A stretch of 37,357 bases of DNA from an uncultured bacterium (GCA_903952785.1 CAJBHC010000076.1:1-37357), one strand, 5' to 3'. Counted from the stretch's first letter, positions 2,736 to 29,770 are shown. A program made the numbers and translations. The notes: generated by a model from the sequence alone, not told the origin.

Positions 2736-2772
2736 CTAGAGTTTTGAATAGGTTAATTTAAGGTAAAAGAAA

Positions 2773-2800
2773 CACCCGAGTCCTGTGAAGGACCCGGGTG
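2773..2800. terminator. bidirectional hairpin terminator between tRNA-Phe and the convergent G+C-rich lipoprotein gene
   Basis: CACCCGAGTCC-tgtgaa-GGACCCGGGTG stem-loop, with T-rich runs following it on both strands. Confidence 0.6.
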
Positions 2801-2842
2801 GGTTTGGTTGTTTGGTTTTAGATCGGGGTGGTGACGCTATGG

Positions 2843-3544
2843 TTAGTAGCGTCGTTGTGGCGGGTACGGCATCCTCGGTTGAGGTTGACGTTGTCCACCA
2901 GGCAAACATTGCGGTACAGGCTGGCATTGTGGCACTGGCCGACACACAACAACTGGCTGAGGTCGACGAGGTGGTTGCCAGCAATTTGTAATTTGCTGAC
3001 GTGGTTGTGGTTGCTGGCAGATCACCCTCGGTTGAGGTTGTCTCCATTCCTGTTGGAACGTTGGCTGTGGGCGGGGTTGCGGTCGTGGTTGCGGTGGTAA
3101 AGCCACTACAACCCTGTTTTTACACCTTATCCTCCAGGTCTCCTTTGTGACCGGATTGTGGAAGACAACTTCCCCATCGGGCACTACTTGGAATTGGGCA
3201 CGCCCTTTTCCAATGTCATTCAACCAGTATTTGCAATCCGGTCCAAAGGCATCGGTCCAAAGGATTTTAACGCACCCCGGGGTCGGGGTGGTGGATTGGC
3301 CCCCAAAACAATCTGTGTTGAATATCTTCCCCACCATTTGATGGGGATTCCATTGCTGTTGTTGTGGTTGGTCGTACTGGCCCCCATTAGGAGGTCTCAT
3401 CATCTGACCCTGCTGAGGGCCACCGACGCCGTTGAATCCAATGGTGGCCATTGGACCCACCGATATTTGCATCCCCCCACACGAAACGAGGTGGAGGATT
3501 GCGATCGCCAGGGCGATCATTTTGATTTTGATAATCATTTTCAT
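2843..3544 (-). CDS. predicted lipoprotein, P/Q-rich with Cys-containing C-terminal repeats (ORFan)
   Basis: Signal peptide plus lipobox (MKMIIKIKMIALAIAILHLVSC). PQPRPQPRPQP and QPQPR repeats. G+C-rich coding sequence. Sits downstream of a consensus promoter and long leader. Overlapping + strand ORFs were judged artefacts of high G+C. Confidence 0.65.
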   Translation of the reverse strand: MKMIIKIKMIALAIAILHLVSCGGMQISVGPMATIGFNGVGGPQQGQMMRPPNGGQYDQPQQQQWNPHQMVGKIFNTDCFGGQSTTPTPGCVKILWTDAFGPDCKYWLNDIGKGRAQFQVVPDGEVVFHNPVTKETWRIRCKNRVVVALPPQPRPQPRPQPTFQQEWRQPQPRVICQQPQPRQQITNCWQPPRRPQPVVVCRPVPQCQPVPQCLPGGQRQPQPRMPYPPQRRY

Positions 3545-3612
3545 TTTCTTGTCTTTCTAATCTTGGTTGTTGGTTTGGTTGTTCTAGATAGATATCATCC
3601 AGCTAACTATAT

Positions 3613-3640
3613 GTTAACTAAGTAATATCTACCTAAAACC
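3613..3640 (-). promoter_or_regulatory. conserved 28-nt leader motif, copy 1 (minus strand GGTTTTAGGTAGATATTACTTAGTTAAC)
   Basis: 27/28 identical to 4405..4432. Lies inside the 5' leader of the 2843..3544 gene. Confidence 0.6.
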
Positions 3641-3732
3641 TCCAAAATCAATCAATTTAAGACAAAACATGAAGAACGAACATCACCAATCTTCTCTAAA
3701 ACCTATGTATTTAAAGGAACTGTACAGCCTGT

Positions 3733-3761
3733 ATTATATAACTATTAAACTTATTTGTCAA
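3733..3761 (-). promoter_or_regulatory. sigma70-type promoter (TTGACA-17 nt-TATAAT) for the 2843..3544 gene
   Basis: The minus strand reads TTGACA (3761..3756), a 17-nt spacer, then TATAAT (3738..3733). This implies a leader of about 180 nt. Confidence 0.7.
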
Positions 3762-3773
3762 GCAGATTTTTGG

Positions 3774-3826
3774 CAAAAAAAATACCGCTCGGTGCGTGGC
3801 CTCCTAGGGGAGACGACGCACGAGCG
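3774..3826 (-). terminator. rho-independent terminator of the 3979..4317 gene
   Basis: On the minus strand an 11-12 bp G+C-rich stem (CGCTCGTGCGT ... ACGCACCGAGCG) is followed by TATTTTTTTT. Confidence 0.65.
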
Positions 3827-3978
3827 ATATGGTATTTTGAGGCGGTTTTTCATGCGCCTCGGGGGTTTTTGTTGATTGATTGGTTGCTCGCCCTGCATTC
3901 GCGGGGCACCGATGTACCTTGGCCTGTTAGGGCTTTGGCATGATAGGAACCCTCTGCTTGTTCCAGGCCCAGCGCCCA

Positions 3979-4317
3979 TCATAGTAGATGGGCAGATCTT
4001 GACCCCACGGGATCCTCACAGACCCCTCTCCTCTTATCGAGGTAGACCGCTGTGGGACTTTCGCCGTAGACCTTCCCCCAGCTTGTCAGCTGGGCCCCCT
4101 TGGTGGGGCTCGCGGGGTGACCTACGAATGGGTTGGGTGGGCGGACTCCCTGGTGGTGGATCCCCTGTGGAAGGCTCCAGCTGTCCCAGCTCCAGTTGGG
4201 GAAGTAGTGAGTAACTACCTTTCCAGCGTAGTATGCCGCTGGGGCAAGTAGTGCGATCAGGGCGAGGGCGATGAACGGGGCTGCGATGCCTAATAGAATC
4301 TTATTTGTGGTTGACAT
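3979..4317 (-). CDS. small membrane-anchored or secreted Trp-rich protein (ORFan)
   Basis: 112-aa ORF with an N-terminal hydrophobic helix (ILLGIAAPFIALALIALLAPAAYYA). Preceded by a promoter and leader paralogous to that of 2843..3544. The competing + strand ORF 3876..4214 has no such context. Confidence 0.5.
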   Translation of the reverse strand: MSTTNKILLGIAAPFIALALIALLAPAAYYAGKVVTHYFPNWSWDSWSLPQGIHHQGVRPPNPFVGHPASPTKGAQLTSWGKVYGESPTAVYLDKRRGVCEDPVGSRSAHLL

Positions 4318-4404
4318 GGTTGCTGTTGTTCTATTGGTTGTTGTTTGGTTTGGTTGCTGTTGTTGGTTTGGTTTGGTTAGACAGATACCGCCAAGCTAAC
4401 CTTG

Positions 4405-4432
4405 GTTAACTAAGTAATATCTGCCTAAAACC
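4405..4432 (-). promoter_or_regulatory. conserved 28-nt leader motif, copy 2
   Basis: The minus strand reads GGTTTTAGGCAGATATTACTTAGTTAAC, with one mismatch to copy 1. Confidence 0.6.
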
Positions 4433-4527
4433 GCTATAAACAACGACAATCAAGAAAAACAATCATGAACGTACCTTTCGGCCCGCGTCACATCTCTCAA
4501 TCAACATGTTAAAGAACTATATGGAGT

Positions 4528-4556
4528 ATTATATAACCATATGTTGATTTTGTCAA
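4528..4556 (-). promoter_or_regulatory. sigma70-type promoter (TTGACA-17 nt-TATAAT) for the 3979..4317 gene
   Basis: The minus strand reads TTGACA (4556..4551), a 17-nt spacer, then TATAAT (4533..4528). This implies a leader of about 200 nt ending in a CA-rich tract. Confidence 0.7.
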
Positions 4557-4573
4557 GTATTTTTTAAATATCC

Positions 4574-5128
4574 CTAGATACTCTTAATTCTAACCTTCAT
4601 TTGCCTATCCTTATCAACCCTTGGTAATTTAAGTGTCAAAATACCTTGTGATTCAATAGCTTCAGCATGTTCAATATCAACTTCATGTGGCAATTGAATA
4701 TTTCTTGAGAAAGAGCCCCAATAAAGCTCTCGATGGAAGTAATCATCATCAGCAACAATCTTTTCCTCTTTTCTAACACCTTTAAGTAGTACAGAATCTC
4801 TAGTTAAATTAATTTCCAAATCTTCCTTTTTGACTCCAGGAATCATAGCTTTGACGATAACGTCATCTTGCGTTTGATAGACATCAATAGATAGTTCACT
4901 ATCAGCTGAAGAGTCATCCATCCATGAAGATCTATTTTTGTCATCAAATTGAGGATGAAGCTGAACATTCTTTTTAGGACCAGACATAACTGGCTTAGTA
5001 TTTTTTGCTGGAGAGAAATCATAATCTTCAGCTTCTTCTAATTGCTCGTCTTCATCGATATTAACCGCACCCGTTAGTCTTTCAAAAAAGGATCTTTTTT
5101 TCATATTTTTTATATATTTACTATTCAA
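4574..5128 (-). CDS. Hsp20/alpha-crystallin family small heat shock protein
   Basis: Alpha-crystallin domain: IDVYQTQDDVIVKAMIPGVKKEDLEINL ... GSFSRNIQLPHEVDIEHAEAIESQGILTLKLPRV. The 5128 start is TTG, and the ATG at 5104 (MKKRSFFERL) is a likelier start. Confidence 0.85.
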   Translation of the reverse strand: MNSKYIKNMKKRSFFERLTGAVNIDEDEQLEEAEDYDFSPAKNTKPVMSGPKKNVQLHPQFDDKNRSSWMDDSSADSELSIDVYQTQDDVIVKAMIPGVKKEDLEINLTRDSVLLKGVRKEEKIVADDDYFHRELYWGSFSRNIQLPHEVDIEHAEAIESQGILTLKLPRVDKDRQMKVRIKSI

Positions 5129-5214
5129 TTATAATGCATTGAATAAAAAAAAGCCAGAATTCTTATTTAATTAGATAAATATTTCTGTTTTGGCTAAGGT
5201 GTTTGGGGAGAGCC

Positions 5215-5970
5215 CTAGAACTTTTTAATCATCTTCACCTTCTCTAATGACAAAATAAGAAGAATTATTGAAATCCAGACAAATGAAAACGCAATAAACA
5301 TATTTTGTTCATCGCTTATCACAATAATATAATTAAAAATAGTATGGATTATTCCAGCGGCAATTAATCCAACTAGCGCCCAAGATACTTTACCTAACTT
5401 TTTCTTATAAAAACTATACCCAACAAATACTGAGAAAACTCCAGAGGCCGCAACATGAAGAAGGCTTGCCCCCATAAATCTTGCGGTGCCGGTCAATACA
5501 CTGGCTACCATATCTCCGTTAAATAGTGGGGTTAATAAGAAGAGAGTGTTTTCCATTGCAGCAAACCCTAGCGCAACACTCATCATGTATATAAAAGAAT
5601 CGATCGGTTGATCGTACACATTTTTTAATCTCAGCGCAACAAGCCAAGCTGCGCCAAATTTAACTGCCTCTTCAATAATCGCCCAGATATAAATTGCAGA
5701 TAAGTTACCATCCATCAAGTCAAAAAGACTAACTGATATTTTTTGTAGAGGGTAAACCACAAATACTCCGATCATTCCCGCGATGAAAGATAGAAAAATA
5801 ATATCCTTTGGTTCATGATGGTCATTTGATTCATGCATCCAAAACCACAGCCAAAAAACAGCGGGTAAGACTCCGCCGATTAAGGCGTACATAAAAGTTT
5901 CAATAGTAAAAAGCGGGACACTGTGTAGTATTTCCAGATAGCCTGATATTATATTTAAAAGGTTGGCCAT
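5215..5970 (-). CDS. prsW: PrsW-family intramembrane metalloprotease-like membrane protein
   Basis: Polytopic membrane protein with an EEAVKF motif (the EExxK of PrsW) and a distal HTIFN motif. Its start overlaps the valS stop by 16 nt. Confidence 0.6.
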   Translation of the reverse strand: MANLLNIISGYLEILHSVPLFTIETFMYALIGGVLPAVFWLWFWMHESNDHHEPKDIIFLSFIAGMIGVFVVYPLQKISVSLFDLMDGNLSAIYIWAIIEEAVKFGAAWLVALRLKNVYDQPIDSFIYMMSVALGFAAMENTLFLLTPLFNGDMVASVLTGTARFMGASLLHVAASGVFSVFVGYSFYKKKLGKVSWALVGLIAAGIIHTIFNYIIVISDEQNMFIAFSFVWISIILLILSLEKVKMIKKF

Positions 5971-18100: not shown

Positions 18101-20415
18101 ATCCAATCTTCCCTGGCACAATCAATAGCTGTGGCAACTTATATTTTGCAGGAACATATACACTGGGAGGAAATGTGGTTGGAAGTTGCAACATTGGGGT
18201 ACCTGGTGTGATAATAAACGGAGCGGGACATGCTCTAACAGGAGATATAACAGCAAATGAATATGGTGTCACACTTTCAAATATCACCGTAACTGGTGTA
18301 GTCTCCACAACTGGAGCTGGAGTCGGAACAATAACCATCAATAACGCATCAAATCTAACTGGATCATTAACCATAACTGGCTTTCTCGCAGGGGATGGAT
18401 CAAGTTCAGTGGCAAGTACGACAATTGATGGAAATGGAGTGGTTGCAACAAGTAGCGTGAGCTTTGTAGGAGAAGTTAAAAACAATGGGATAATATATAG
18501 TGGAAACTTTGTTGGTAACTTAACCAACAACGGAACAATAGAGAACAGTACAACTTCACCCGTTATAGCTTTAGGGAATACTTTAAACAACGGAGTCATT
18601 AATGGAGGATTTGTTTTGAACTCTAACTCAACTAACCATGGAACAATAAATGGAAATGTAGTGTTGAATGATAACTCAATAAACAGCGGAACGGTTAATG
18701 GAACAGTTTCAGTATATGATTCTTCACTAAACACGGGAATTGTCACTGGTGATTTGATATTGAATTCCATTTCATCTGCCTCTGGAGTTGTCTCATTTGG
18801 AACAACAACTAATTTTCTTGGAACTGGCCGTGTGATGGGTGCGGTCAGAGATCAGGCAAGTACGACAATCACGAAGTGGATATTTAACGGCGGAAGCACA
18901 AATAGTGGATATACTAAAGGGATGACATTTTTCAATGGAACAAGTACAAACTCCGGTACTATTTTGGGTCATTCATACTTTAATAACTCTTCAATAAATA
19001 CGGGAACTATAACTGGTGATGCTGATGTATACTATTTTGTTACGACACCACTTGGGGGCACTGTAACAGGAACAACCACATACTACTCATATCCAAACAC
19101 AAAGACATTTAATAATAGCGCGGGGGATGGAATGTGGAATAACTCACTAAACTGGTTTACAGATACGACACTTCAGACAAATCTTGGAGGACTTCCCGCA
19201 TCAGGTGAAGCTGTAGTTCTATTCTCTTCAACTACATTATTATCAAATGTAAATAATGATGTATATATTGGAGCGAACAATATAACAATAGACGGAGTAT
19301 CGGGAAAAAATATAGGCGGATTCATTTCTGGTAACGGAGCGTATGATGGAGGTAATGCATTCAACTTCAACTTGTTCAACCTGACTGTGACTGGAACCAC
19401 ATCTGCAAATGGAGCTGATAACAGTAATGGTGTGGGAGGAAAGGGGGGAAATATAAATATCTCAGCATCAATTACAGCAAACGTTATTGCCAATGGAGGA
19501 TATGGAACATTGGGGAGTGGGGATGGTGGAACCATTACTGTAACAAATCCAATAACGACAGGAGCGACAAACGGTGCTTCAACAGGTGGTGCATCAAATG
19601 GAAGGTCTAGTGGCACAAGCGGAGGCTCTCAGATTAATTTAGGATTAGCAAATAATCTAAACTTATCAAACCCTGAAAGGTCGCTAATAAATATAAACAG
19701 TAATTTTGGATTGCCACGTCGTGTCGTTACCCCGCCTCGTCGGGAAAGGCGTGACCCTCCAATTATAGTTGTCCAGATTCGTCCAGTTATAGTTTTAAAA
19801 GATCTTCCAAAAATATCTATTGATGATGCACTAAATAATTTCTTGGATGATTCACTTCCTGAGGATCTTGTTGATCTTTCTAATGCTGTTCCTTCAATCA
19901 AAAAGGAATTGAGATCTAGTAGTATTAGCGGTGGATATATTCTTTATAGGATGAAAGAAAGCCCTGTTAATACGCCGACATTAAAACAGTTTTTGAGTAC
20001 AAGGACTCAGCAACCTTACAACTTAATTTTTGTATCAGTTGATGGAGTGGGTAAACCAACCAAACTCTCTATTGACGCGAAGGGTAATTTGTATCAGATA
20101 GTAAACGTGGCTTCATATTCAGCCATTGGTGTGACTGCTAGGGAGAATAGCGAGAAGGTGATAGTTACATTTAATGGAAAGGAGACAAAGTTTGTCAAAG
20201 ATAATAAAAATATTGTTAAGGTTAACGTTGTTGTGCCAGGGGGTGGGGGTACAAACATCTTGAAAATTGGAAAATTGACACTTGAGGTTAGGGTAGATGA
20301 TACTTATGCTGGATCAGAGCGATTGGGCGAGATTGGAACCACAGCTCCAATTAAATTGGCATTTTATTGGTTCAGAGAGAATGTTAATAACTTTATCAAG
20401 GCGGTGAGGAGATAG
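15058..20415 (+). CDS. giant surface protein, C-terminal part (blades 3-7 of propeller 2, Cys-pair module, propeller 3, Cys-pair module, N/G/T-rich beta-helix repeats, C-terminal domain)
   Basis: The repeat pattern of the upstream ORF continues without a break. The annotated TTG start lies inside that repeat, so this is most likely the continuation of 12146..15103 and not an independent gene. Confidence 0.8.
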   Translation: MGKKTSAGSRNWYSIASDTTGAKLAAVVNNGYIYTSSDSGETWATSTGSGVRFWRSIVSDTTGTKLAAVANGEYIYTSTDSGFSWATSSLSVGSRNWYSITSDASGTKLAAVVYNGYIYTSVDSGVTWSTSTSAGSRYWKEIKYSSDGTRLVASTASTEKIYFSNDNGLTWVNRGVDGIWRILGFNSQGNKVFVSSSGSSIADYINAIDFTFDISVNQYIKINSPILNAVLTIQSWLPSVEWGFNKTTCQYSYNNWVSTSTANCVLGGSDILPPQSEGSNTLYLRSVDAINNVSITSVLFKYFSNGWNLRDLNKNITSISTDISGRKLVALTGSSVTYDYINTSNDGGLSWIERISSTKQNWQGLASDALGVKLAAIGSDGYIYLSIDSGINWTKSTYLTSRSWSSITSSADGSYLAGTVNNDYMYFSTDFGATWATSTGSIALGKQAWQKIASSVDGKKLIAAVYNGYIYTSEDYGVTWATSTSAGLRYWKSVDSSADGSTLVAVVGGNGGMYDGRIYTSYDRGVNWVPRDSSRSWWDVTVSTDGSKMAAMVRNSNIYNSTDAGVTWSPSTGSDQLNWKSITSSADGNKLFAAVPYSGVYVHELLTQSMAADILLPQNLAITTAWNPIISWSTATSCYYSYDNWVSTSTANCALNGSDITPPSTSGTVTLYIKGIDAGAVVKTNTSTFTYAPHYWCGTADSSWTNVSNWYTDATCSVNKGSIPTNTSGVFLVENTSPIISWSTTTLPLFINSTGLTGGANTAGVIFGGTAYNSTKIVGNATFNGTSYNAGEITGNAIFSAASNGTFSLSGTMKWDGTIAGTIKGGDTLDITNLLFNNSSSNETTIGNTIYAVFNDSASNNGTIDGNATFNNTGLFTMGTVNGTTTMSGLSQTLNGVNNVVNLVKNIATVIRDTLFITSGSILNISGGTTIQGYDANNLLTIQSTIPGIQASLGINGTSTLNYLRIRDINNTGANINLSTNTVFNDGGNTGFTFDGSKAMVPREGMTSSYLNGTDPIFPGTINSCGNLYFAGTYTLGGNVVGSCNIGVPGVIINGAGHALTGDITANEYGVTLSNITVTGVVSTTGAGVGTITINNASNLTGSLTITGFLAGDGSSSVASTTIDGNGVVATSSVSFVGEVKNNGIIYSGNFVGNLTNNGTIENSTTSPVIALGNTLNNGVINGGFVLNSNSTNHGTINGNVVLNDNSINSGTVNGTVSVYDSSLNTGIVTGDLILNSISSASGVVSFGTTTNFLGTGRVMGAVRDQASTTITKWIFNGGSTNSGYTKGMTFFNGTSTNSGTILGHSYFNNSSINTGTITGDADVYYFVTTPLGGTVTGTTTYYSYPNTKTFNNSAGDGMWNNSLNWFTDTTLQTNLGGLPASGEAVVLFSSTTLLSNVNNDVYIGANNITIDGVSGKNIGGFISGNGAYDGGNAFNFNLFNLTVTGTTSANGADNSNGVGGKGGNINISASITANVIANGGYGTLGSGDGGTITVTNPITTGATNGASTGGASNGRSSGTSGGSQINLGLANNLNLSNPERSLININSNFGLPRRVVTPPRRERRDPPIIVVQIRPVIVLKDLPKISIDDALNNFLDDSLPEDLVDLSNAVPSIKKELRSSSISGGYILYRMKESPVNTPTLKQFLSTRTQQPYNLIFVSVDGVGKPTKLSIDAKGNLYQIVNVASYSAIGVTARENSEKVIVTFNGKETKFVKDNKNIVKVNVVVPGGGGTNILKIGKLTLEVRVDDTYAGSERLGEIGTTAPIKLAFYWFRENVNNFIKAVRR
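15064..15070 (+). other. A7 homopolymer / A AAA AAA heptamer at the junction of the two giant ORFs (-1 frameshift site or indel)
   Basis: Frame 0 reads GTA AAA AAA CAT. The -1 frame continues with AAA AAA ACA TCT GCT GGA AGT CGT AAT TGG (KKTSAGSRNW), which restores the blade consensus. Confidence 0.75.
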
Positions 20416-21220: not shown

Positions 21221-21364
21221 TGCGGAGAGAAGTAATGCATTTATGCATTATGTGAGGGGTTTGAAAGGGTTCTCCCATATTTTTGGAAGTGAACGAAGTG
21301 AGAGCTTCCAAAAATGGGAAACCCGTACAGGTCCTGTAAGGACTAAATCCCTCTCTCTCCGCAG
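21221..21364 (+). ncRNA. tRNA-Ser-linked structured element whose outer stems reuse the tRNA-Ser acceptor and T-stem sequences (function unknown)
   Basis: P1 GGAGAGA (21224..21230) / TCTCTCC (21354..21360). P2 TAATGC-atttat-GCATTA. P3 GAGGG (21254..21258) / CCCTC (21349..21353). P4 is a ~20-bp bulged hairpin at 21267..21324. P5 TACAG-gtc-CTGTA. The 3' 21 nt exactly repeat 21181..21201. Confidence 0.5.
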
Positions 21365-21400
21365 TGATTCGCGTTTAAGATATTCTTTAGACACTCACAA

Positions 21401-22291
21401 CTAAAGTGCTATTCTGTCATGCAGTCTCTGAATTCTATCAAATCTATCTTCGGTATCTTCAGCGTTGACTTCTAATGTATCTTTTATCATATTTAGAAGC
21501 TTGATGTTTTCAGGCTCTAATTTGGAAATTTCTAATGGGGAAGAGGTTCTCTCTATTTCTCTTAAATATTCTGATTCATTGAAAAAACCAATAAACTGTC
21601 TCTCTGGTATGTGATTAAGTATGAAATCTTTGTCAGATTCATTTCTAATTTTATTTGCAATAATAAAAAGATTTTTATGCACCCCACCTTCTTTTGCTAG
21701 GTGATTATAATGTTCAAAGACTTCAATACTCCTCTTTGTTGGTTCTACGATAAGGGCGAGTACATCAAATTGTGCGTGTAGAGTATTAGCAAAAGCGTCA
21801 ACTCCAGCGACCATGTCTGTTACAACATATCCATCTTTGTCCACAAGATGGTTTAAGATATTTTCAAATATAACAAGATTACCATGGTAACAACTCTTGC
21901 CGATTCTATCGTCTTCATATGTTCCAACAACTACAAGATGCAGATTGTCTTCTTTGACTGAATAATCCTTCAGTATACTTTTATCTAGATTGTGTATATC
22001 AATTAAATTAGACCCTTCACTTGGTAGAGTAGTCTTTCCCAAATCAACTATTTCTTTAATATTTGAATTACTTCCTATCAAATGTTTTTTGATAGTTGCT
22101 CTAGTCTCAAGTTTAGATATGTACATATCAGGCGATACACTTTCCTTGAAGCCAAATAGCTCAGGGAGGTGTATGTTTAAATCGGCATCAAAAACAAGCA
22201 CTGGCTTTTTTGTGCCAGCAACATGTTTTGAAAATAGGGCAGACAGGGTTGTCTTGCCACTTCCTCCTTTTCCAACAAAAGCAATTCTCAT
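21401..22291 (-). CDS. CooC-like (MinD/ParA-class, SIMIBI) P-loop ATPase, putative metallochaperone
   Basis: Deviant Walker A MRIAFVGKGGSGKTT, DADLN, and a switch-like TDMVAGVDAF (CooC has DxxAGxE). GKSCYHGN sits where CooC carries its CxC metal site. Confidence 0.65.
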   Translation of the reverse strand: MRIAFVGKGGSGKTTLSALFSKHVAGTKKPVLVFDADLNIHLPELFGFKESVSPDMYISKLETRATIKKHLIGSNSNIKEIVDLGKTTLPSEGSNLIDIHNLDKSILKDYSVKEDNLHLVVVGTYEDDRIGKSCYHGNLVIFENILNHLVDKDGYVVTDMVAGVDAFANTLHAQFDVLALIVEPTKRSIEVFEHYNHLAKEGGVHKNLFIIANKIRNESDKDFILNHIPERQFIGFFNESEYLREIERTSSPLEISKLEPENIKLLNMIKDTLEVNAEDTEDRFDRIQRLHDRIAL

Positions 22292-22305
22292 ACCTTAATT
22301 GAGGA

Positions 22306-22521
22306 TTATTCCGTTGATTCCGCTATTGGTTTAGCGTTTTCAATAAGAGTATTGTATTCAGCTACGGTCATTACAGTGCTTCCATTCTCAGGCTTAGCTG
22401 GATCATAAATTTTAACCATACCTTCCTCAACTAAGTGTTCAACCACGGGGCATCCACAGCTACATCCGTTGTTTCCACAAAACAATGCGCCATCATAAAC
22501 TAGAGTTTTAATACTTTTCAT
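22306..22521 (-). CDS. small Cys-rich protein (C15-x4-C20-x-C22-x-C24), putative metal-binding partner
   Basis: 71-aa ORF lying 14 nt upstream of the ATPase on the same strand. The N-terminus MKSIKTLVYDGALFCGNNGCSCGCP faintly recalls the ArsD N-terminal Cys cluster. Confidence 0.55.
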   Translation of the reverse strand: MKSIKTLVYDGALFCGNNGCSCGCPVVEHLVEEGMVKIYDPAKPENGSTVMTVAEYNTLIENAKPIAESTE

Positions 22522-22551
22522 ATTTTTTAATTGATTTATTTTATTAACAAA

Positions 22552-22566
22552 TGCGAGTAATTTGCA
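22552..22566. promoter_or_regulatory. operator-like 7-1-7 imperfect palindrome TGCGAGT-A-ATTTGCA, copy 1
   Basis: Lies 31 nt upstream of the Cys-rich gene start. Its reverse complement matches 22610..22624 at 12/15 positions, with all differences in the central 3 nt. Confidence 0.45.
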
Positions 22567-22609
22567 TTTAAATACATACTAATCCTTAAATAAAAATAAG
22601 TCAAGTTGT

Positions 22610-22624
22610 TGCAAATAGGTCGCA
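22610..22624. promoter_or_regulatory. operator-like motif TGCAAAT-AGG-TCGCA, copy 2 (inverted relative to copy 1)
   Basis: Lies 20 nt upstream of the Fur-family gene ATG and has Fur/Zur/PerR-box-like 7-1-7 geometry. Confidence 0.45.
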
Positions 22625-22643
22625 TCTATTGTATTATTAAATT

Positions 22644-23096
22644 ATGAAAAAAGGGGATAAGAATAACAGTAAAAATAAAGACGAAGCTTTAGTTGGTGTA
22701 CTACGTAATAATGGGTACAAGGTTACTCAAGGGCGTATCTCTATCTTGGAGGTTTTTTCCAAATATCATATTCCATTAAATGCTGAAAGTGTCTCCGGTT
22801 ATCTAAAAAATAAAAGGGTAGATGTAGCCACTATATACAGAACACTAAAGTCATTTGAAGAAAAAGGAATACTTAGAAGAGTTGATTTGAGAAATGATTC
22901 TGTTTGTTTTGAGATGAATGATAGTCATCACCATCATCATTTGGTTTGCAAAAAGTGCGGAGACATAGAAGACGTGGATGTTTGTGAAATAGATAGATTG
23001 AGTAAAATTGCATTGAAAAATTCACTAAAATTTAAATTAATAATAGATCATTCTCTGGAATTTTTTGGAGTATGTAAGACATGCAATAAGGTTTAA
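22644..23096 (+). CDS. Fur-family metalloregulator (Fur/Zur/PerR type not resolvable)
   Basis: Winged-helix N-domain (ATIYRTLKSFEEKGILRRV), His cluster DSHHHHHLVCKKCG, and a second CxxC (CKTC). Confidence 0.85.
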   Translation: MKKGDKNNSKNKDEALVGVLRNNGYKVTQGRISILEVFSKYHIPLNAESVSGYLKNKRVDVATIYRTLKSFEEKGILRRVDLRNDSVCFEMNDSHHHHHLVCKKCGDIEDVDVCEIDRLSKIALKNSLKFKLIIDHSLEFFGVCKTCNKV

Positions 23097-23123
23097 AATT
23101 AATAGCTTACAGGTCTATTTTTA

Positions 23124-23166
23124 AATAAAAAAATCACCACGACAGGGTTACTGTCGTGGATTTTTT
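23124..23166. terminator. bidirectional rho-independent terminator
   Basis: An A-run, then CCACGACAG-ggtta-CTGTCGTGG, then TTTTTT. It sits between the convergent Fur-family gene and the PEP-CTERM gene. Confidence 0.75.
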
Positions 23167-23198
23167 GAGGGTGGCCATGTCCCTCGGTGTTATAGTGG

Positions 23199-24173
23199 TT
23201 ATGCCGCCATCTTCATTGAGCGCCGCGTCCGGATTAATAGGCTGGATCCAAGGAAACAGCCGACGGCCAACAGGCTTCCAGGTTCGGGGATGGCGGAGAT
23301 GTTGATCGGAAGTATTCCTCCCTTCATCCCGTCATTTGAACACCCCGTGCCCGCAAAAAACGTTACCGGCGTCTGGGGATCCAGCCAGCTGAACATGCTG
23401 GTCGGGACCTCAAAGCCCCAGATTAACTGATCCGCATAGGCATAACCGGTGTTGACCCCGGTTGTCGCCAGCGTGTCTGCTGTGTTCATTGTGCGCACCT
23501 CCGTTGTCTTTGTAAATATAACGGAGTCTGCACTGGATGAGATTAACGCCCACGGATCTGAGGCCCAATTCAGACCGAACTCGCCCCGTTGTAGGATTGA
23601 GTCAGGGCCTAGTCCCACAACTTGGTACGTCATGGTGTTGCCACTAACGCTAATGATGTTCAGAGCATATTCAAATCCGTATGAGGAATTTAGCTGGTTG
23701 ACGTGCCCATCCCCACTCCTTGGAGTTGGGCTTAGGTGGTTACCATCCGTATCAACGAACACGGTTTGGAAACCGTGACCTTCGGTGTTGACGGTGGAAC
23801 GGGGATCAAACCCGCTCACCATCCAGACGGTTGAGGTGGTAGCGGTGACATTCGGCTGGAAGCCAAACCCCATCAAGTCCCACTTCTTGCCAGTCTCACA
23901 GTTTGGGTTGACCTGTCCAATCTCCCCAATCCCTGGCCGGGGGTCTGTGCCAAACAGGGCGGGTTTAACGATCCCATCGGGGCGGGTGACGTCGCGGGCC
24001 ACTGAGGGCCCACCGAAATCAATCGTCACGAACGATGGTGTTGGTGGTGGATCGGCCCTAACCTTAGGGGTCATGCCGACGAGTAGGGTGATTGCCATGG
24101 CTAGTGAGGCCACAACACCGATAATTGCGCCCAAGACGCGTTTTCCTTTTCTCATTGTTTTTGACTTGGTCAA
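23199..24173 (-). CDS. secreted protein with C-terminal PEP-CTERM-type sorting signal (G+C-rich ORFan)
   Basis: N-terminal signal or anchor (RVLGAIIGVVASLAMAITLLVG) and C-terminus IPEPGSLLAVGCFLGSSLLIRTRRS (PEP motif, hydrophobic helix, Arg cluster). The 24173 start is TTG, and the ATG at 24155 is a likelier start. Confidence 0.65.
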   Translation of the reverse strand: MTKSKTMRKGKRVLGAIIGVVASLAMAITLLVGMTPKVRADPPPTPSFVTIDFGGPSVARDVTRPDGIVKPALFGTDPRPGIGEIGQVNPNCETGKKWDLMGFGFQPNVTATTSTVWMVSGFDPRSTVNTEGHGFQTVFVDTDGNHLSPTPRSGDGHVNQLNSSYGFEYALNIISVSGNTMTYQVVGLGPDSILQRGEFGLNWASDPWALISSSADSVIFTKTTEVRTMNTADTLATTGVNTGYAYADQLIWGFEVPTSMFSWLDPQTPVTFFAGTGCSNDGMKGGILPINISAIPEPGSLLAVGCFLGSSLLIRTRRSMKMAA

Positions 24174-24205
24174 ACCGTGTTTCTCTAATGGTTCAATCCA
24201 CGGTC

Positions 24206-24234
24206 AATATATCGCAATCCGCCTTACTTGTCAA
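24206..24234 (-). promoter_or_regulatory. sigma70-type promoter (TTGACA-17 nt-TATATT) for the PEP-CTERM gene
   Basis: The minus strand reads TTGACA (24234..24229), a 17-nt spacer, then TATATT (24211..24206). Confidence 0.6.
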
Positions 24235-24238
24235 TACA

Positions 24239-24817
24239 TTAGTCTTGTGGTGTAATAGTACCCAGTATTTTGTGCTTAATCAATAGTTTGTTGACAGTAT
24301 CGATTTGTTCTTTAATTTCAACGCTAATCTTTGGCTGTCTTGTTTCTAGTGTTGACTTAAGAATGGAGATCATCTTTGTAACTTGTGATAAGGCTGTTTC
24401 GATATACATTTCTTGACCCGATGTCTGAGATGTATGATCGACAGTTGTTAATAGAGCGCTTATAACACTGAGATATTCAAACATAAAATCATCCAACTCG
24501 AAGACTTTGTTTATTTTAATAAGCAGAGCGCTAATTTGAGATGATATTTTTTCCTTCACTGCTACATCGCTTATAATGCGTAAACCAGCTCTCAAATTAT
24601 TAATTTCACCATAGAAATATTCTCGAATTGTTACATCACTTCTGTCAAACATTTGAGCAGTTCTTGTTGAATCAAACGTTCCGTAATTATTTTCTGATTC
24701 TGTTCTGTCTAATTCTTCAATTTGAGAAGTAAATTTTGCGACCCTGCTTTCTATAGCTTCAACCATTAACAGTTGAGTTTCTTCTTCAGAGACAAGATTT
24801 TCTGGAAAGGGCTTCAT
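24239..24817 (-). CDS. hypothetical helical protein
   Basis: 192-aa ORF with no recognisable motif. Separated by 7 nt from the upstream gene on the same strand. Confidence 0.5.
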   Translation of the reverse strand: MKPFPENLVSEEETQLLMVEAIESRVAKFTSQIEELDRTESENNYGTFDSTRTAQMFDRSDVTIREYFYGEINNLRAGLRIISDVAVKEKISSQISALLIKINKVFELDDFMFEYLSVISALLTTVDHTSQTSGQEMYIETALSQVTKMISILKSTLETRQPKISVEIKEQIDTVNKLLIKHKILGTITPQD

Positions 24818-24824
24818 TTTGTCA

Positions 24825-25376
24825 TTAATTTATTAATGCAAATCTCTTAACTGAGGCTTTTGGCCGACCATTCTCATCTAGTTCATTTTCTCCAAAAACC
24901 TTCATGCTTGTAAATTCTTCGTATTCCCTGACCCAAATTGGATTGTGCCCAAACTCTGGGGAGTCATACTGTCCTTCGTAAATAATGAACTTATTTTTTG
25001 GATTTTTAGGATCGCAGGCAATAGCCTTAATAATATAATAGTCTTTTGTTTTGAAATGTTGATATTTTTGTCCGATAGATACAGCAGACTCTTCATCATC
25101 CTCTTTTGATTCCTCGGTGGCTTGTGCAGTATGTGTTTCTTCGTCAAAATCATCCATATTTTTTATGTCAACCATTTTCTTTAGATAGTGCTTTTCTGGA
25201 ACACTGCCTTGCCCATCAGTTATTTTTTTGTATACAATAAAGAGGTCTTCAATGTTCCCAGACTCTCTGGCTATAAAATCTACTAGATATTCATTACCTT
25301 CTGATGTTGCATATCTTTGTCCAGCTTCAAAATGCATAACTTTTGATTCTTGATGGTGCGTAGTTGATTCAGTCAT
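24825..25376 (-). CDS. hypothetical protein with two DUF1653-like repeats
   Basis: GQKYQHFKTKDYYIIKAIACDPKNPKNKFIIYEGQYD ... IWVREYEEF resembles the DUF1653 pattern (Y-x-H-[YF]-K ... VVY ... WVRP..F). A weaker N-terminal copy is present (GQRYATSEGNEYLVDFIARES ... FIVYKKI). Confidence 0.5.
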   Translation of the reverse strand: MTESTTHHQESKVMHFEAGQRYATSEGNEYLVDFIARESGNIEDLFIVYKKITDGQGSVPEKHYLKKMVDIKNMDDFDEETHTAQATEESKEDDEESAVSIGQKYQHFKTKDYYIIKAIACDPKNPKNKFIIYEGQYDSPEFGHNPIWVREYEEFTSMKVFGENELDENGRPKASVKRFALIN

Positions 25377-25427
25377 GCTTTATATGATATTGTATTAAGG
25401 ACTATTGTGCAACAATAGGGAAGAGAT

Positions 25428-25501
25428 GGGCGATTAGCTCAGTTGGCTAGAGCGCAGACTTGACGTGTCTGAGGCCACAGGTTCGAGCCCTGTATCGCCC
25501 A
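25428..25501 (+). tRNA. tRNA-Val (anticodon GAC)
   Basis: Acceptor GGGCGAT/ATCGCCC, D arm GCTC-AGTTGGCTA-GAGC, anticodon stem CAGAC/GTCTG with loop TTGACGT, T arm ACAGG-TTCGAGC-CCTGT, discriminator A. Confidence 0.9.
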
Positions 25502-26673: not shown

Positions 26674-26746
26674 AGAATTATTATATCAAATTTATACAGA
26701 GCCTCGGTATTTACAAAAGTCTAAAGTGGTGTAGAGTGGGCGTCAG

Positions 26747-27061
26747 ATGAAAACTTACTTTGATGCGCCCGCCGCAGATCCCAAAGAAAGAAAGGCCGCT
26801 TTATCAGCATTGAGACGTTGTGGATTTGATGTTGCACCCCAGGGAGTTCCTCTAAACGCAACATTTTACTACTACGCTACACTCGATGGTGTTAATGCCG
26901 AGCATGCTGGCTCAGCAGACCTTTTGGAACTTGGTTTAACAATTATCACGGTTGGTGAGTTCGATGATTTTCTTTCTCGGCATATCAGCCCAAGCGACCC
27001 TGTCAGTATTGATAGTCGGAGCGGGCGCATCGTATCGCCAGCTCGTCAGTTCAAAAAATAG
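26747..27061 (+). CDS. hypothetical small protein (G+C-rich ORFan, no signal peptide)
   Basis: This is the only ORF in a locally G+C-rich segment. It is preceded by TTTACA-16 nt-TAGAGT ending 9 nt before the ATG and followed by a hairpin terminator. Confidence 0.45.
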   Translation: MKTYFDAPAADPKERKAALSALRRCGFDVAPQGVPLNATFYYYATLDGVNAEHAGSADLLELGLTIITVGEFDDFLSRHISPSDPVSIDSRSGRIVSPARQFKK

Positions 27062-27107
27062 GTTGCGTTCCTAGTGAACGTAGTCCTCCAAATATTTTAT
27101 CCCCAAC

Positions 27108-27140
27108 CAAGAAACCCCTTCGTTGGGGCTTCTTGTTTCC
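27108..27140 (+). terminator. hairpin terminator after the 26747..27061 ORF
   Basis: CAAGAAACCCC-ttcgtt-GGGGCTTCTTG followed by TTTCC. Confidence 0.5.
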
Positions 27141-27152
27141 TTGGTTTATTCA

Positions 27153-27734
27153 TTAGTTATTTCTTAAATCTCCAACTATGACATGCCAAACTGTCCCATT
27201 CGAAGCTTTATAGGTTCCAGTATCGGTATAGATGCTGTGAACTGCGAGCGACTTCTTGTTTTTGTCTGCTATTTCTCCTACAAAAATATCAAAACCTTGG
27301 TCTTTGCACATTGATTTAGATGATGAATATAATCGAGTAAAGATAGAACTGCCCCTGAATTCTTTTCCTATGCATACTTGTGCAAATACAATGTATTTAT
27401 ATTCCGATATGTATTTTTCATCAAATTTCATTTTTTCGGCACAAGATTACATCTCGCTAAAGAAAGGGCTTCTTAAACCCAAGTTTTTAGTCATTGTAAT
27501 TAAGTATCCTGTTAACTTTTCGCCAGCCATACTCAAAAATATTCCTGAAATATCTATAATTTCTGCTAATTCTGATTCCGAGGGGTTCCAGACGATAAAA
27601 CCATCGTCCCTTTCCTCTTCAGTTAAATTTTCGCCAAGATTTTCCTGAACAAGTTTTAAAATTAGTGGGATATCAGGCATTTCCGCCTTCCTAATCGTAG
27701 TTTTTTCAGGATTGATGGTTTCAAAATTATTCAT
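27153..27734 (-). pseudogene. GNAT-family N-acetyltransferase interrupted by one in-frame TAA
   Basis: ORFs 27447..27734 and 27153..27431 are in the same frame, separated only by a TAA (27449..27447) and five sense codons. The C-terminal half carries the acetyl-CoA motif-A-like QVCIGKEFRGSSIFTRLY. Confidence 0.6.
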
Positions 27735-27816
27735 TCACTAATTCTACCAAATTTACATATTTTTTTCTTGGCCAAAATCTGCTGATTTCGACACGATTTG
27801 CACGCTTGCAAATTGC

Positions 27817-29124
27817 TTACTTCTTCGCTCTTCTTAGGAACGCTGGGATTGAGTTCCATTCATCATCGTCATCTTGAACGCCTTGAAGAGGAGCGTTTGG
27901 ATTCTCTTCTTCTTTTGTTTCTTCAATTGTCTTTGGTGTGCTGTGTGCGGTGTTTGTTGAAGGGGTATGAATTGTATTATGAATCTTGCCTTTATTGTCA
28001 TCATTCTTTGATTGAACTTGAACCTCAACATTTTGTGGAGCTGTATTTATCTCTACACTTGACGATGTTGGCTTATCAGATCGCTCTATTGTTTCTTTTG
28101 TTCCAAATACTGGAGTTGATTGTCTTGATGACATACTGTCAAAAATAGTTTTTCTTATTGCGCTATTATCAGGGAAGTTTGCTGCGATAACTGTAATCTT
28201 CAATTCATTCTTCTTTAGTCTCTCATCCTTTACAGTTCCAAAGATAATCTTTGCATCAGGATCTACTGAGTCTGTGATGAGTTTTGCAGCTTCTTGAATT
28301 TCCCACATAGTTAAATCATCATTTCCTGCGATAGAAAATAGTACCCCCTTTGCCCCGTGAATTGAGACATCAAGAAGGGGAGAGCTGATTGCAGCACGAG
28401 CTGCCTCTTCCGCTCTTTTCTCACCAGAGGCTGATCCTATTCCCATTAGCGCTGGACCTGCATTCTCAAGAACAGCTCTGATGTCTGCAAAGTCAATGTT
28501 TCCAACTGTTCCAGGAGTTGTGATAAGTTCTGAAATTCCTTCAACTGCTTGCTTTAGAACTTCATCACACATTGCAAATGCATTCTTTGCTGTTGTATCT
28601 TTTGTGACGGCGGCAAGGAGCTTGTCATTTGGAATTACAACCAGTGCATCAACTGCTTTACTTAATTCCTCAAGCGCGTGTTCCGCAAGACGCATACGTT
28701 GTTGTCCTTCAAATGAAAATGGTTTTGTAACAACTCCAACAGTGAGAGCTCCCATTTCTTTAGAAATCTTTGCTACAATTGGCGACGCACCTGAACCTGT
28801 TCCACCACCCAGTCCTCCAGCAACAAAAACCATGTCAGAATTTTTAAGAGCTTCTTGAATTTCTTCTTTTGTTTCCTCCGCAGCTTGACGTCCAACTTCT
28901 GGATTCATTCCGGCGCCTAATCCTTTAGTAAGATTTTTACCGATGTGAATTTTTCTCTTTGCCATTGAGTGATGTAGATCTTGCGCGTCAGTATTTATCG
29001 CAAGAAAATCAACACCTTTAACTTTATTGTTGATCATGTGATTGATTGCATTTTTTCCTGACCCTCCAACACCCACAACTTTTATTCTTGCAAATGTCTC
29101 TACGTCTGTTTTTACCTGTGGCAT
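27817..29124 (-). CDS. ftsZ: cell division protein FtsZ with long disordered linker
   Basis: GVGGSGKNAINHM, the tubulin signature GGGTGSGASPIVAKISKE, and a conserved C-terminal peptide DDEWNSIPAFLRRAKK. Confidence 0.93.
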   Translation of the reverse strand: MPQVKTDVETFARIKVVGVGGSGKNAINHMINNKVKGVDFLAINTDAQDLHHSMAKRKIHIGKNLTKGLGAGMNPEVGRQAAEETKEEIQEALKNSDMVFVAGGLGGGTGSGASPIVAKISKEMGALTVGVVTKPFSFEGQQRMRLAEHALEELSKAVDALVVIPNDKLLAAVTKDTTAKNAFAMCDEVLKQAVEGISELITTPGTVGNIDFADIRAVLENAGPALMGIGSASGEKRAEEAARAAISSPLLDVSIHGAKGVLFSIAGNDDLTMWEIQEAAKLITDSVDPDAKIIFGTVKDERLKKNELKITVIAANFPDNSAIRKTIFDSMSSRQSTPVFGTKETIERSDKPTSSSVEINTAPQNVEVQVQSKNDDNKGKIHNTIHTPSTNTAHSTPKTIEETKEEENPNAPLQGVQDDDDEWNSIPAFLRRAKK

Positions 29125-29381
29125 ATTATTTCTGTTATTGGATTTATGATTAACGTTTACTTGGGCTTTATACTACCATTTACGGAAAATCAAGGCAATA
29201 TTGACTTTTGTTGTTCTAGAGTTGGGCGTGCCCATAATCTGATTGACATCACGGATGTTGTATGTCATATTATTAGAGGAGGAGTCGCCGAATTCTCTGC
29301 TAAGTAAAAGGACGTTTGTTACATTGGATACCTCGGTAGGTATTTGATTGACGTCTGGGCTAGTGCCACGTTGTTAATTCA

Positions 29382-29615
29382 ATGAAAGAACTTAGATCTA
29401 TAGGTGAAAATCATATGCCGCCAAAAGGGCTTAAAATTGAAATTGGAAGAGACGGTGTCAGGCTGGAAACAACCATTTCCTATCCTGGTTGGGGCCAACT
29501 CATGTGGCTGGCGGTTGCTACCGCCGGTCTCGCGGTCACCGCAGTACTCATGCTTGGCGAAAAACATGTTGTCGGGCAGGCGGAAACGAAGGACAGTCTT
29601 GATCCGGAGGAATAG
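29382..29615 (+). CDS. hypothetical small single-TM protein (G+C-rich, antisense to the ftsA-ftsZ direction)
   Basis: 77-aa ORF with a TM helix LMWLAVATAGLAVTAVLML. Two other overlapping ORFs exist in this G+C-rich stretch, so the frame choice is tentative. Confidence 0.35.
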   Translation: MKELRSIGENHMPPKGLKIEIGRDGVRLETTISYPGWGQLMWLAVATAGLAVTAVLMLGEKHVVGQAETKDSLDPEE

Positions 29616-29695
29616 TTCGTCGCACACCGTCTAAATAGAAAGTAATTGACTACTGGTAAATATAGTCAATCACTCACAAACAAAATCAACAAACC

Positions 29696-29731
29696 AAAAA
29701 CCGGCCTCCTGTACCAGCAGGGGCCGTTTTC
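29696..29731. terminator. bidirectional hairpin terminator in the ftsA-ftsZ spacer
   Basis: AAAAA, then CGGCC(T)CCTG-taccag-CAGGGGCCG, then TTTT. Confidence 0.6.
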
Positions 29732-29740
29732 TTATTAACC

Positions 29741-29768
29741 AAAAGAGAGCCACGCCGGAGGGCGGGGC
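29741..29768 (-). terminator. hairpin terminator immediately after the ftsA stop
   Basis: The minus strand reads GCCCCGCC-ctcc-GGCGTGGC followed by TCTCTTTTGG. Confidence 0.5.
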
Positions 29769-29770
29769 CA

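Follow-up and report, generated by a model that had tools for sequence, protein, structure and literature searches.

G+C-rich single-gene units in the AT-rich genome of a small lake bacterium, probably long-resident and fast-evolving envelope-protein genes

INTRODUCTION

Why does a bacterial genome of 37.3% guanine plus cytosine (G+C) carry, between its housekeeping genes, several short genes that are much richer in G+C, and were these genes acquired recently? The question is raised by a stretch of 37,357 nucleotides from an uncultured bacterium (GCA_903952785.1 CAJBHC010000076.1:1-37357), which is the complete contig C76 of an assembly of 876 kb in 99 contigs and is hereafter called the window. 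A first-pass annotation had read its G+C-rich segments as modules, each with promoter, gene and terminator, that were repeatedly acquired from a high-G+C donor, perhaps the host of the organism, and possibly moved by an unrecognised mechanism. Herein, we distinguish five units (A to E) in these segments and compare them with related genomes. In our judgement, the units are probably long-resident, fast-evolving envelope-protein genes, at least one of which was captured long ago, with alleles swapped within the genus by homologous recombination.

RESULTS

Units A and B keep their position and G+C content across the genus

Genomes of relatives measure 0.5-1.1 Mb, and relatives of the window's hsp20 gene come from lake metagenome-assembled genomes (MAGs; Loclat, MJ-time and AM bins) and, more distantly, from Parcubacteria, Paceibacteria, Zambryskibacteria and Kaiserbacteria MAGs. 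Therefore, the host is a Paceibacteria-type bacterium within the candidate phyla radiation (CPR), ultra-small, with a genome of about 0.9 Mb, from stratified lakes. The window's genome (G000, a MAG that is 88% complete) was compared with MAGs that are 83-98% complete. The sisters were six other species of the genus, with FtsZ 87-97% identical and housekeeping DNA 75-88% identical; presence was counted over seven genus genomes (G000-G006), and L046 was used as an additional genus MAG. Concatenated native proteins gave the species tree ((G002,G003),(G005,(G004,(G000,G001)))). The locus between tRNA-Phe and hsp20 contains the following features.

2663..2736, plus strand: tRNA-Phe(GAA), found by ARAGORN and Rfam; left border of the A/B locus in every genus species examined
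2773..2800, minus strand: intrinsic terminator of unit A, with a T-run after a 12-bp stem
2843..3544, minus strand: coding sequence of unit A, 233 amino acids (aa), G+C 0.52 over the segment and 0.53 over the gene, G+C at third codon positions (GC3) 0.52
3545..3726, minus strand: 5' leader of unit A, about 180 nt, with a hairpin at 3586-3634, a C/A-rich tract up to the ATG and no Shine-Dalgarno (SD) motif
3733..3761, minus strand: promoter of unit A, TTGACA-17-TATAAT (12/12), conserved in the genus
3775..3826, minus strand: terminator of unit B, a long G+C hairpin followed by T8, read from the sequence
3927..4317, minus strand: gene of unit B, an N-terminally anchored membrane protein, G+C 0.59, GC3 0.66
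4318..4521, minus strand: 5' leader of unit B, a paralogue of the A leader, in which a long C/A-rich tract comes after a hairpin at 4379-4426
4528..4556, minus strand: promoter of unit B, TTGACA-17-TATAAT (12/12)

The A protein has a lipoprotein-type signal (LVSCGG), a small, conserved Cys-containing core at about residues 62-150, and a disordered tail rich in Pro, Gln, Arg and Cys. The core was modelled by AlphaFold2 (AF2) with a predicted local distance difference test (pLDDT) score above 94, and Foldseek gave no match to its fold in the PDB (best E 0.68). Orthologues stand after tRNA-Phe in six other species (G001-G005 and L046); they are 200-243 aa long, have a G+C content of 0.52-0.58, and share 28-54% protein identity. 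Among 5.8 billion proteins the A family has 12 relatives, none of which was shown to lie outside the lineage, and thus no donor is visible for A. The exact A protein had no record in other assemblies.

Unit B has an open frame of 112 aa (3979-4317), which a frameshift near 4020-4035, around a G-run, splits from the conserved C-terminus. The C-terminal residues, about 35 in number and conserved in G004 and G005 (..DLPIYYDGRWAWNKQRVPIMPKP), lie in the other frame and end at 3927-3929; the interruption reflects a pseudogene, variation among strains or a mistake in the assembly. Orthologues of B were found ahead of hsp20 in G001, G003, G004 and G005, with lengths of 124-183 aa, a G+C content of 0.52-0.56 and protein identities of 20-43%, the homologues of B and E being compared within the genus. 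The B terminator does not figure in the terminator-scan list and aligns with G005 at 80%.

The segment 2740-4560, described in the first-pass annotation as one cassette, is indeed G+C-rich and consists of two units. That annotation had itself allowed that G+C-rich genes with orthologues at the same positions in relatives would speak against recent acquisition; A, and largely B, lie at the same positions and are equally G+C-rich in the sisters (six of six for A and four of six for B). In blastn comparisons with the sisters, tRNA-Phe, the terminators, promoters and leaders, and hsp20 aligned, and the coding parts did not.

Two species have additional genes at this locus. In G003 (L024 4300-7800), the slot between tRNA-Phe and hsp20 contains an extra 269-aa gene with an N-terminal helix-turn-helix (HTH) and two 247-aa genes of 52% G+C; read by eye, the 269-aa gene is possibly related to an insertion sequence (IS). 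In G005 (L022 17300-18600), a 398-aa AT-rich gene lies between A and B.

Unit C belongs to a PEP-CTERM family of high-G+C bacteria

23137..23159, no strand assigned: terminator common to fur and unit C, bidirectional, a hairpin plus T
23199..24155, minus strand: coding sequence of unit C, 318 aa, G+C 0.55, GC3 0.62
24206..24234, minus strand: promoter of unit C, TTGACA-17-TATATT (11/12)

The C protein starts with a helix that is a signal or an anchor, continues with an ectodomain rich in beta structure and ends in a tail of PEP-CTERM type (IPEPGS, a hydrophobic helix and RTRRS). The tail, read from the sequence (..SAIPEPGSLLAVGCFLGSSLLIRTRRS), aligns with the tails of 41 homologues. AF2 modelled the protein with a pLDDT of 85.6 and a helix at residues 295-317, and no PDB match to the fold was found by Foldseek (best E 0.06). 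Residues 288-312 of the window copy matched PF07589 with an E of 0.03 and 14.9 bits, below the cut-off of 20.7, and the copy had no TIGR02595 match; across the family, PF07589 matched 28 of 42 members (best 6e-8) and TIGR02595 matched 21 of 42.

A word-based search with C retrieved the genus copies only. A profile search over 1.84 billion representatives found 155 relatives of 250-320 aa, which share the signal peptide, a conserved ectodomain with ..WDLEAF..GGFN..GDIF.D..CGND.. and clear PEP-CTERM tails, and the earlier description of the unit proteins as ORFans thus does not hold for C. Named members of the family came from a Verrucomicrobiaceae MAG, Haloferula sp., a Methylacidiphilales MAG and one Patescibacteria MAG, and the best relatives outside the genus were about 30-37% identical. 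One close relative lies on a 61-kb contig (L041) of about 60% G+C with chemotaxis and sensor-kinase genes. Another PEP-CTERM gene of the family lies on a contig from the same lake study (L032; Logan ERR12084922, 73.6 kb, 60% G+C), where its neighbours, read by eye, resemble a phage module for portal, protease and capsid; possibly, this phage-like contig represents a vehicle for the family.

In the gene tree, the three genus copies were monophyletic (100/100) and nested among the high-G+C family, and the other Patescibacteria copy was placed elsewhere. As the genus copies are 54% identical and monophyletic, a single old event is indicated. The descent of C from a PEP-CTERM family of high-G+C diderms whose named members are Verrucomicrobiota is well supported, with a single acquisition before G000, G001 and G005 split. 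The donor lineage was most likely a high-G+C, exosortase-bearing member of the Verrucomicrobiota. The high-G+C donor proposed at first is therefore borne out for C, from a family of which two contigs measure about 60% G+C, and not for A and D, for which no foreign homologue was found.

Three of the seven genus genomes carry C, namely G000, G005 (55% identity) and G001 (54%), with the promoter and short leader homologous in the latter two. C is absent from G002, G003, G004 and G006, where its slot holds a 1759-aa surface protein, a 359-aa gene or small open reading frames (ORFs). In G001, the unit lies across the cbiA-fur block, immediately 3' of tRNA-Ser.

No exosortase was detected with PF09721 in any of 31 genomes (E<=0.01), a search that could miss a very divergent enzyme, and TIGR04178 matched none of the seven genus genomes, with sub-cut-off matches only elsewhere. 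Sortase was also considered as the processor of the C tail and was rejected; it is present in most of the genus and was not found in the C-bearing G000 and G005, so that there is no correlation. Given that no sorting enzyme was detected, the tail is most likely a simple C-terminal membrane anchor. In the literature searched, we found no report of PEP-CTERM proteins in CPR bacteria.

Three further G000 proteins have tails of the type [IV]PE..-hydrophobic-RR (C65:1005-1595, C47:6522-7214 and C25:446-1468). The C25 protein has the native AT-rich composition, and its repeats were read as HAF-like; the contig measures 1.7 kb and could be a binning contaminant.

The G+C excess stems from both amino acids and codon choice

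Unit A segment, 2740-3545: G+C 0.52
Unit B segment, 3760-4320: G+C 0.57
Unit C segment, 23170-24235: G+C 0.54
Unit D segment: G+C 0.47
Unit E segment: G+C 0.47 (0.47-0.50 over 29243..29730)

Outside the units, the G+C content of the window is 0.375. Genome-wide windows of 300 nt have a mean of 0.373 and a standard deviation of 0.050, with the 95th percentile at 0.457 and the 99th at 0.517. The 300-nt peaks of A, B and C reach 0.55-0.62, above the 99th percentile, and those of D and E reach 0.47-0.49, between the 95th and the 99th. Of the G+C jumps reported earlier, those of A, B and C are thus clear and those of D and E marginal. The hand counts per 60-nt line behind them (42, 41, 31, 33 and 18 for the lines starting at 4081, 23941, 26761, 29461 and 4801) came to 41, 41, 32, 33 and 18 on recounting.

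With the genome's usual codons, the expected G+C content of the unit proteins was already 0.43-0.46 (z +2.4 to +3.5), indicating that about half of the excess in A to C is due to amino-acid make-up. The other half, roughly, is synonymous codon choice (GC3 0.52-0.66 versus 0.30), and the codon-likelihood z-scores of A to C were -3 to -7. For D and E, the excess is mostly amino-acid make-up, and synonymous choice adds little. G+C-rich segments are not exceptional for the genome, in which some 55 windows reach 50% G+C or more and roughly 40 ORFs are GC3-rich.

Other fast-evolving surface genes in the window (12146-20415) have a native composition (GC3 0.28-0.29), and therefore a surface location alone is not the cause of high G+C. 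Within this region, part of a giant Asp-box surface-protein gene (13350-14250) has a G+C content of 0.46-0.51, and paralogous repeat modules at 15100-16250 carry the same motifs at 0.33-0.44.

The expression signals are native and shared by a class of G+C-rich genes

The earlier description of the units as self-contained was confirmed, each having its own promoter (A 12/12, B 12/12, C 11/12, D 9/12, and E 10/12 plus TG) and its own terminator. The A and B modules are paralogous; in both, TTGACA-17-TATAAT precedes a leader some 180-200 nt long, which contains a conserved hairpin and then a C/A-rich tract that runs to the ATG. One or two tandem copies of the leader core AGATATTACTTAGTTAAC are present in five of six other genus genomes, and none in 24 genomes of other genera. 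In an alignment of 11 hairpin copies from six genomes, 99.5% of cells were paired and two pairs showed compensatory changes. The hairpin belongs to no Rfam family, and at E<=1 the A leader gave miRNA-type chance matches only. A structured RNA in place of a protein was rejected for the units, as Rfam found only tRNAs at gathering level and the protein-level conservation of A to C marks them as coding.

C/A-rich leaders extend beyond the window. Among 39 GC3-rich ORFs of G000, the leader fraction of C was 0.25 versus 0.13 (p=3e-13) and that of T was 0.17 versus 0.33. Leaders of an ACCAAC type, C/A-rich and T-poor, precede for example C65:1005-1595, C47:228-758, C10:11973-12374 and C41:5526-5978. 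The promoters and leaders of the units are rich in AT, resemble native ones in style and are conserved across the genus, and no C/A leader was found upstream of the donor-side homologues of C on the Verrucomicrobia-type and phage-like contigs. Therefore, they were not imported with the genes, and this candidate explanation was ruled out.

The 3' end of 16S rRNA, read in G002, G005 and G004 (L084-L086), is ...GGAACAAUUCAAUUUG, without the CCUCC anti-SD, and an SD-like motif precedes 5% of the genes in G000, which is below background. The C/A leaders are not a substitute SD sequence, since the 16S tail (AACAAUUCAAUUUG) is not complementary to them. The expression signals are thus native: the promoters fit the sigma-70 consensus and the leaders carry no SD motif, in a lineage with no anti-SD in its 16S rRNA. 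The G+C-rich genes make up a class whose members have a leader style of the recipient in common.

The coding parts evolve fast, recombine and keep their G+C content

Between species, protein identity is 85-97% for the neighbours, compared to 28-54% in A, 20-43% in B and 54% in C. In rate of evolution, the coding parts exceed the neighbouring genes by a factor of 10-20, and their flanks are about 80% identical. Terminal branches of the A tree measured 0.24-1.6, compared to 0.02-0.10 for the concatenated native proteins. In the A tree, G004 grouped with G002 and G003 (95/95) and G000 with G005 (100/99), which conflicts with the species tree.

The near-identical strain sequence L031 differs from the window at 31 positions, which are unevenly spread. 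Two fall in the 2.8 kb leftward, including the body of C, and 29 fall in the 1.3 kb from the first codons of C rightwards, with the switch at about 24120. The C body has no single-nucleotide polymorphism (SNP) in 920 nt, compared to 16-22 per kb in the two genes to the right. These differences indicate that a recombination tract ends at the 5' border of C, and the same counts reject local hypermutation of the coding part in the case of C.

At four-fold degenerate sites, the G+C content (GC4) of native genes is 0.21, and that of the units is 0.37-0.61 for A (seven species), 0.56-0.63 for B (five species) and 0.50-0.62 for C. Four-fold sites of conserved codons differ by 0.57-0.85 in A to C, with saturation at about 0.72, versus 0.40-0.45 in native genes. 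In well-aligned blocks of C, four-fold divergence was 0.68-0.69 versus 0.44 for native genes of the same genome pairs (p=0.001). Polarised changes from G or C to A or T (S>W) and the reverse (W>S) were near balance, at 102:92, 56:60 and 35:32; by our estimate, about 3:1 is expected under native mutation pressure. Under the F81 model, the memory from the genus root to a tip is about 0.47, and an ancestral GC4 of about 0.83 would have been needed for A and about 1.0 for B. Taken together, these rough estimates suggest that the G+C content of the units is held above passive amelioration, either through GC-biased conversion linked to recombination or through selection that acts on the mRNA.

Assembly of the units is correct, and no mobilising system was found

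An independent Logan contig from another run (L031) matches positions 21345-25455 without gaps at 99.25% and carries C with both flanks, the exact D protein occurs on seven contigs, and MAGs that were assembled independently from other lakes show the A/B arrangement again; the assembly of the units is correct. One contig end elsewhere in G000 (C46:8077-10230) has 64% G+C and a 717-aa low-complexity ORF rich in Gln, Ser and Asn; this end, unlike the remaining genome, may be contamination or a chimera.

As first reported, no integrase is visible in the window, and the only tyrosine recombinase of the assembly lies on contig C84. No direct or inverted repeats bounding the units were found in the window. 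A tRNA-linked integrative island was rejected, as the window has no tyrosine recombinase or other integrase and the 3' end of tRNA-Phe is not repeated downstream. Integron cassettes were rejected because there is no intI-type recombinase and no shared 3' inverted-repeat element, and because each unit has its own promoter. A diversity-generating retroelement was rejected given that the coding parts have no repeats in the window or genome and the C body shows no strain differences; reverse transcriptase was not searched for. Nor is the unrecognised cassette-mobilising mechanism suggested earlier needed, because ordinary homologous recombination explains exchange between conserved flanks.

For tRNA-Ser and tRNA-Val, a short repeat of the 3' end lies 160-180 nt downstream (21181-21201/21345-21365 and 25484-25501/25661-25678, respectively), and these repeats bracket no unit. 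The C unit of G001 sits exactly where G000 has a 143-nt repeat-flanked element 3' of tRNA-Ser, which hints at past site-specific integration or excision at this site.

Units D and E occupy variable slots around ftsZ

26710..27135, plus strand: unit D, a weak promoter-like site, an ORF and a hairpin with T-run; G+C 0.47, GC3 0.38
26710-26737, plus strand: promoter-like site of unit D (9/12)
26747-27061, plus strand: ORF of unit D, 104 aa, a cytoplasmic-looking ORFan
about 27104-27135, plus strand: terminator of unit D, a hairpin with T-run, read from the sequence
29243..29730, plus strand: unit E, between ftsZ and ftsA
29243-29271, plus strand: promoter of unit E (10/12 plus TG)
29382-29615, plus strand: ORF of unit E, a 77-aa single-pass membrane protein
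29706-29723 plus T-run, plus strand: terminator of unit E, a hairpin

Unit D lies in a stretch of 1.05 kb between trxB and ftsZ, an interval that measures 80-430 bp in every relative. Database searches with D gave two matches, namely the protein itself, on its seven contigs, and one protein that is 82% identical. D alone behaves as a species-specific insertion. The slot of E is variable: in G004, conserved flanks enclose a diverged counterpart of 84 aa; in G001 and G006, other, unrelated small genes occupy the slot; and G002 and G003 have no gene there. Empty sites in siblings, which the first reading led one to expect, were thus found for D only; A and B are present in six and four of the six sisters, C is in three of seven genomes, and the E slot varies. 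None of the five unit proteins matched a Pfam or NCBIfam family above the cut-off.

DISCUSSION

What the units are

The reading that we consider probable is that the units are single-gene expression units belonging to a long-standing accessory gene set of a lake Paceibacteria genus. A would be a lipoprotein, B and E membrane-anchored proteins, C a PEP-CTERM-tailed surface protein and D a small soluble ORFan. C would have been captured long ago from Verrucomicrobiota-like bacteria and domesticated under native signals, and A, B and E probably either came from a foreign source long ago or arose in the lineage. The proteins would face the host or the environment under diversifying selection, and alleles may be exchanged within the genus by homologous recombination via the conserved flanks. 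Their high G+C content may come partly from the donors and partly be imposed by a composition rich in Pro, Gly, Arg, Gln and Ala.

Several points weigh against this reading. The slot of C in G001 differs from that in G000 and G005, and therefore some movement of the unit or its neighbours has occurred. The absence of exosortase rests on two hidden Markov models and on MAGs, with G000 88% complete. Across the genome, the excess of N-terminal hydrophobic segments among GC3-rich genes is weak (38% versus 25%, p=0.08), so that an enrichment of secreted proteins among all GC3-rich genes was rejected as a weak trend only. The discordance of the A tree could stem from rate variation or the sorting of old alleles rather than exchange, and the recombination breakpoint at the 5' end of C is a single example. 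Parsimony polarisation is unreliable at 50% protein identity, and the amelioration arithmetic is crude (F81 model, midpoint root and small site counts); unit A alone fits passive decay from a donor with a GC3 of about 0.85. To regard A, B, D and E as foreign is conjecture: the protein databases gave no foreign homologue of A or D, and the comparisons for B and E were confined to the genus.

A somewhat unlikely alternative is that at least A, B and E are native and lineage-born, with their G+C content made and held by local GC-biased gene conversion (gBGC) or by selection for G+C-rich, structured or RNase-resistant mRNA. It agrees with the lack of homologues of A outside the lineage, with similar G+C contents in up to seven species despite protein identities of 28-54% and near-saturated four-fold sites, with the balance of S>W and W>S changes, with the recipient-side C/A-rich, T-poor leaders shared by the 39 GC3-rich genes, and with the evidence for recombination at the loci. 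However, C demonstrably comes from a high-G+C family, and the genome also shows two diderm traits, namely other PEP-CTERM-like tails and a G+C-rich gene that weakly matches an outer-membrane beta-barrel (E=0.0033, below the cut-off). Moreover, the surface genes at 12146-20415 evolve fast and yet keep a GC3 of 0.28-0.29. To our knowledge, the gBGC effects reported in bacteria are far smaller than a shift in GC4 from 0.21 to 0.55, which also counts against this alternative.

A bolder proposal, which we regard as unlikely, is that CPR bacteria keep a dedicated class of envelope genes. Such genes would have an actively maintained G+C content (about 0.5-0.6 at four-fold sites versus 0.21) and class-specific, SD-less C/A leaders. 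The class would include PEP-CTERM proteins captured from possible diderm hosts (Verrucomicrobiota) and processed by an unrecognised enzyme or by the exosortase of the host. Its members would swap alleles, occasionally relocate to the 3' ends of tRNA genes, and act in host attachment or host mimicry.

The idea of recent, repeated modules from a high-G+C donor now seems quite improbable. It can draw on the atypical composition and codon use, on the promoter and terminator of each unit, on D being missing from all sister species, on the diderm pedigree of C and on the relocation of C, with its own promoter, to the position 3' of tRNA-Ser in G001 where G000 has the 143-nt repeat-flanked element. 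The G003 slot, with its possibly IS-related 269-aa HTH gene and two genes of 52% G+C, also fits. However, A is syntenic and equally G+C-rich in all six other species and B in four, the promoters and leaders are native, conserved and not found at the donor homologues, and the window lacks an integrase, unit-bounding repeats and a duplicated tRNA-Phe end. The C copies, 54% identical and monophyletic, reflect one old event, and searches of 5.8e9 proteins with A, C and D gave no near-identical donor sequence.

That the segments are assembly or binning chimeras with a high-G+C organism is hardly credible: the MAG is fragmented into 99 contigs and others are suspect, such as C46 with its 64% G+C end, but an independent assembly carries C with both flanks, MAGs of different lakes share the A/B arrangement, the AT-rich promoters and leaders directly adjoin the G+C-rich coding parts and are conserved together with them, and seven contigs carry the D protein.

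Comparison with known systems

In the model of Lawrence and Ochman, horizontally acquired genes reportedly have an atypical composition and undergo amelioration. Genomic islands, single-gene transfers and horizontal gene transfer have been treated for Patescibacteria (PMC12455944). The units resemble acquired atypical genes in their foreign G+C content and codon use, their accessory nature, their positions next to tRNA genes, their variability among relatives and the one identifiable donor lineage. They differ in being single genes with native promoters, most of them fixed across the genus, with no integrase or att repeats, and in a composition that has not drifted though synonymous sites have largely turned over.

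The sorting system of PEP-CTERM proteins and exosortase (PF07589, TIGR02595) was reportedly described by Haft et al. in 2006. C resembles its substrates in the N-terminal signal, the PEP motif, the hydrophobic helix and the Arg cluster, and is homologous to PEP-CTERM proteins of Verrucomicrobiota. Unlike them, it is found in a CPR bacterium that presumably has a single membrane, searches of the 31 related genomes detected no homologue of exosortase or archaeosortase, and the window copy falls below the Pfam cut-off.

At hypervariable surface loci, such as those for O-antigen, capsule and pilin variants and those of streamlined aquatic bacteria, diversity is kept by recombination via conserved flanks. 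The units share with these loci the conserved flanks, divergent coding parts, a discordant gene tree, tracts that end at the border and envelope products. They differ in being single small genes that stand out by their G+C content and have no silent copy store or dedicated recombinase. Phage morons and integron cassettes are likewise compact, exchangeable units between unrelated genes, and morons have their own promoter and terminator; the present units, however, lie outside any prophage, have no intI, attC or shared Pc, and have kept fixed positions for the lifetime of the genus.

Three points are unusual: the G+C content persists, C/A leaders mark a whole class of genes in a lineage that lacks an anti-SD, and a PEP-CTERM tail occurs where no exosortase was detected. 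CPR bacteria (Patescibacteria) are thought to live attached to other cells, and their attachment and host-recognition proteins are almost unknown. Strongly promoted, fast-evolving and recombining envelope genes are concrete candidates for such roles, and the pedigree of C points to a possible partner lineage of Verrucomicrobiota type in the same lakes. Persistent G+C-rich coding in a genome of 37% G+C, with shared leaders and no anti-SD, bears on the control of composition and translation start in reduced genomes. In these genomes, a G+C jump is an unreliable sign of recent transfer.

Additional observations

Two G+C-rich genes lie together elsewhere in G000 (C64:19059-20434). One encodes a lipoprotein. 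The product of the other has a signal peptide, ends in Phe and matches OMP_b-brl weakly (E=0.0033, below the cut-off); these are traits of the outer membrane, in an organism that presumably has a single membrane. In the window, a stretch of 30 nt on the minus strand (27599-27628) is 80% identical, in inverted orientation, to the part of tRNA-Phe from the anticodon to the T-arm (2688-2717). It falls within a small ORF (27447-27734) in the D-specific insertion and may be a tRNA remnant or a chance match.

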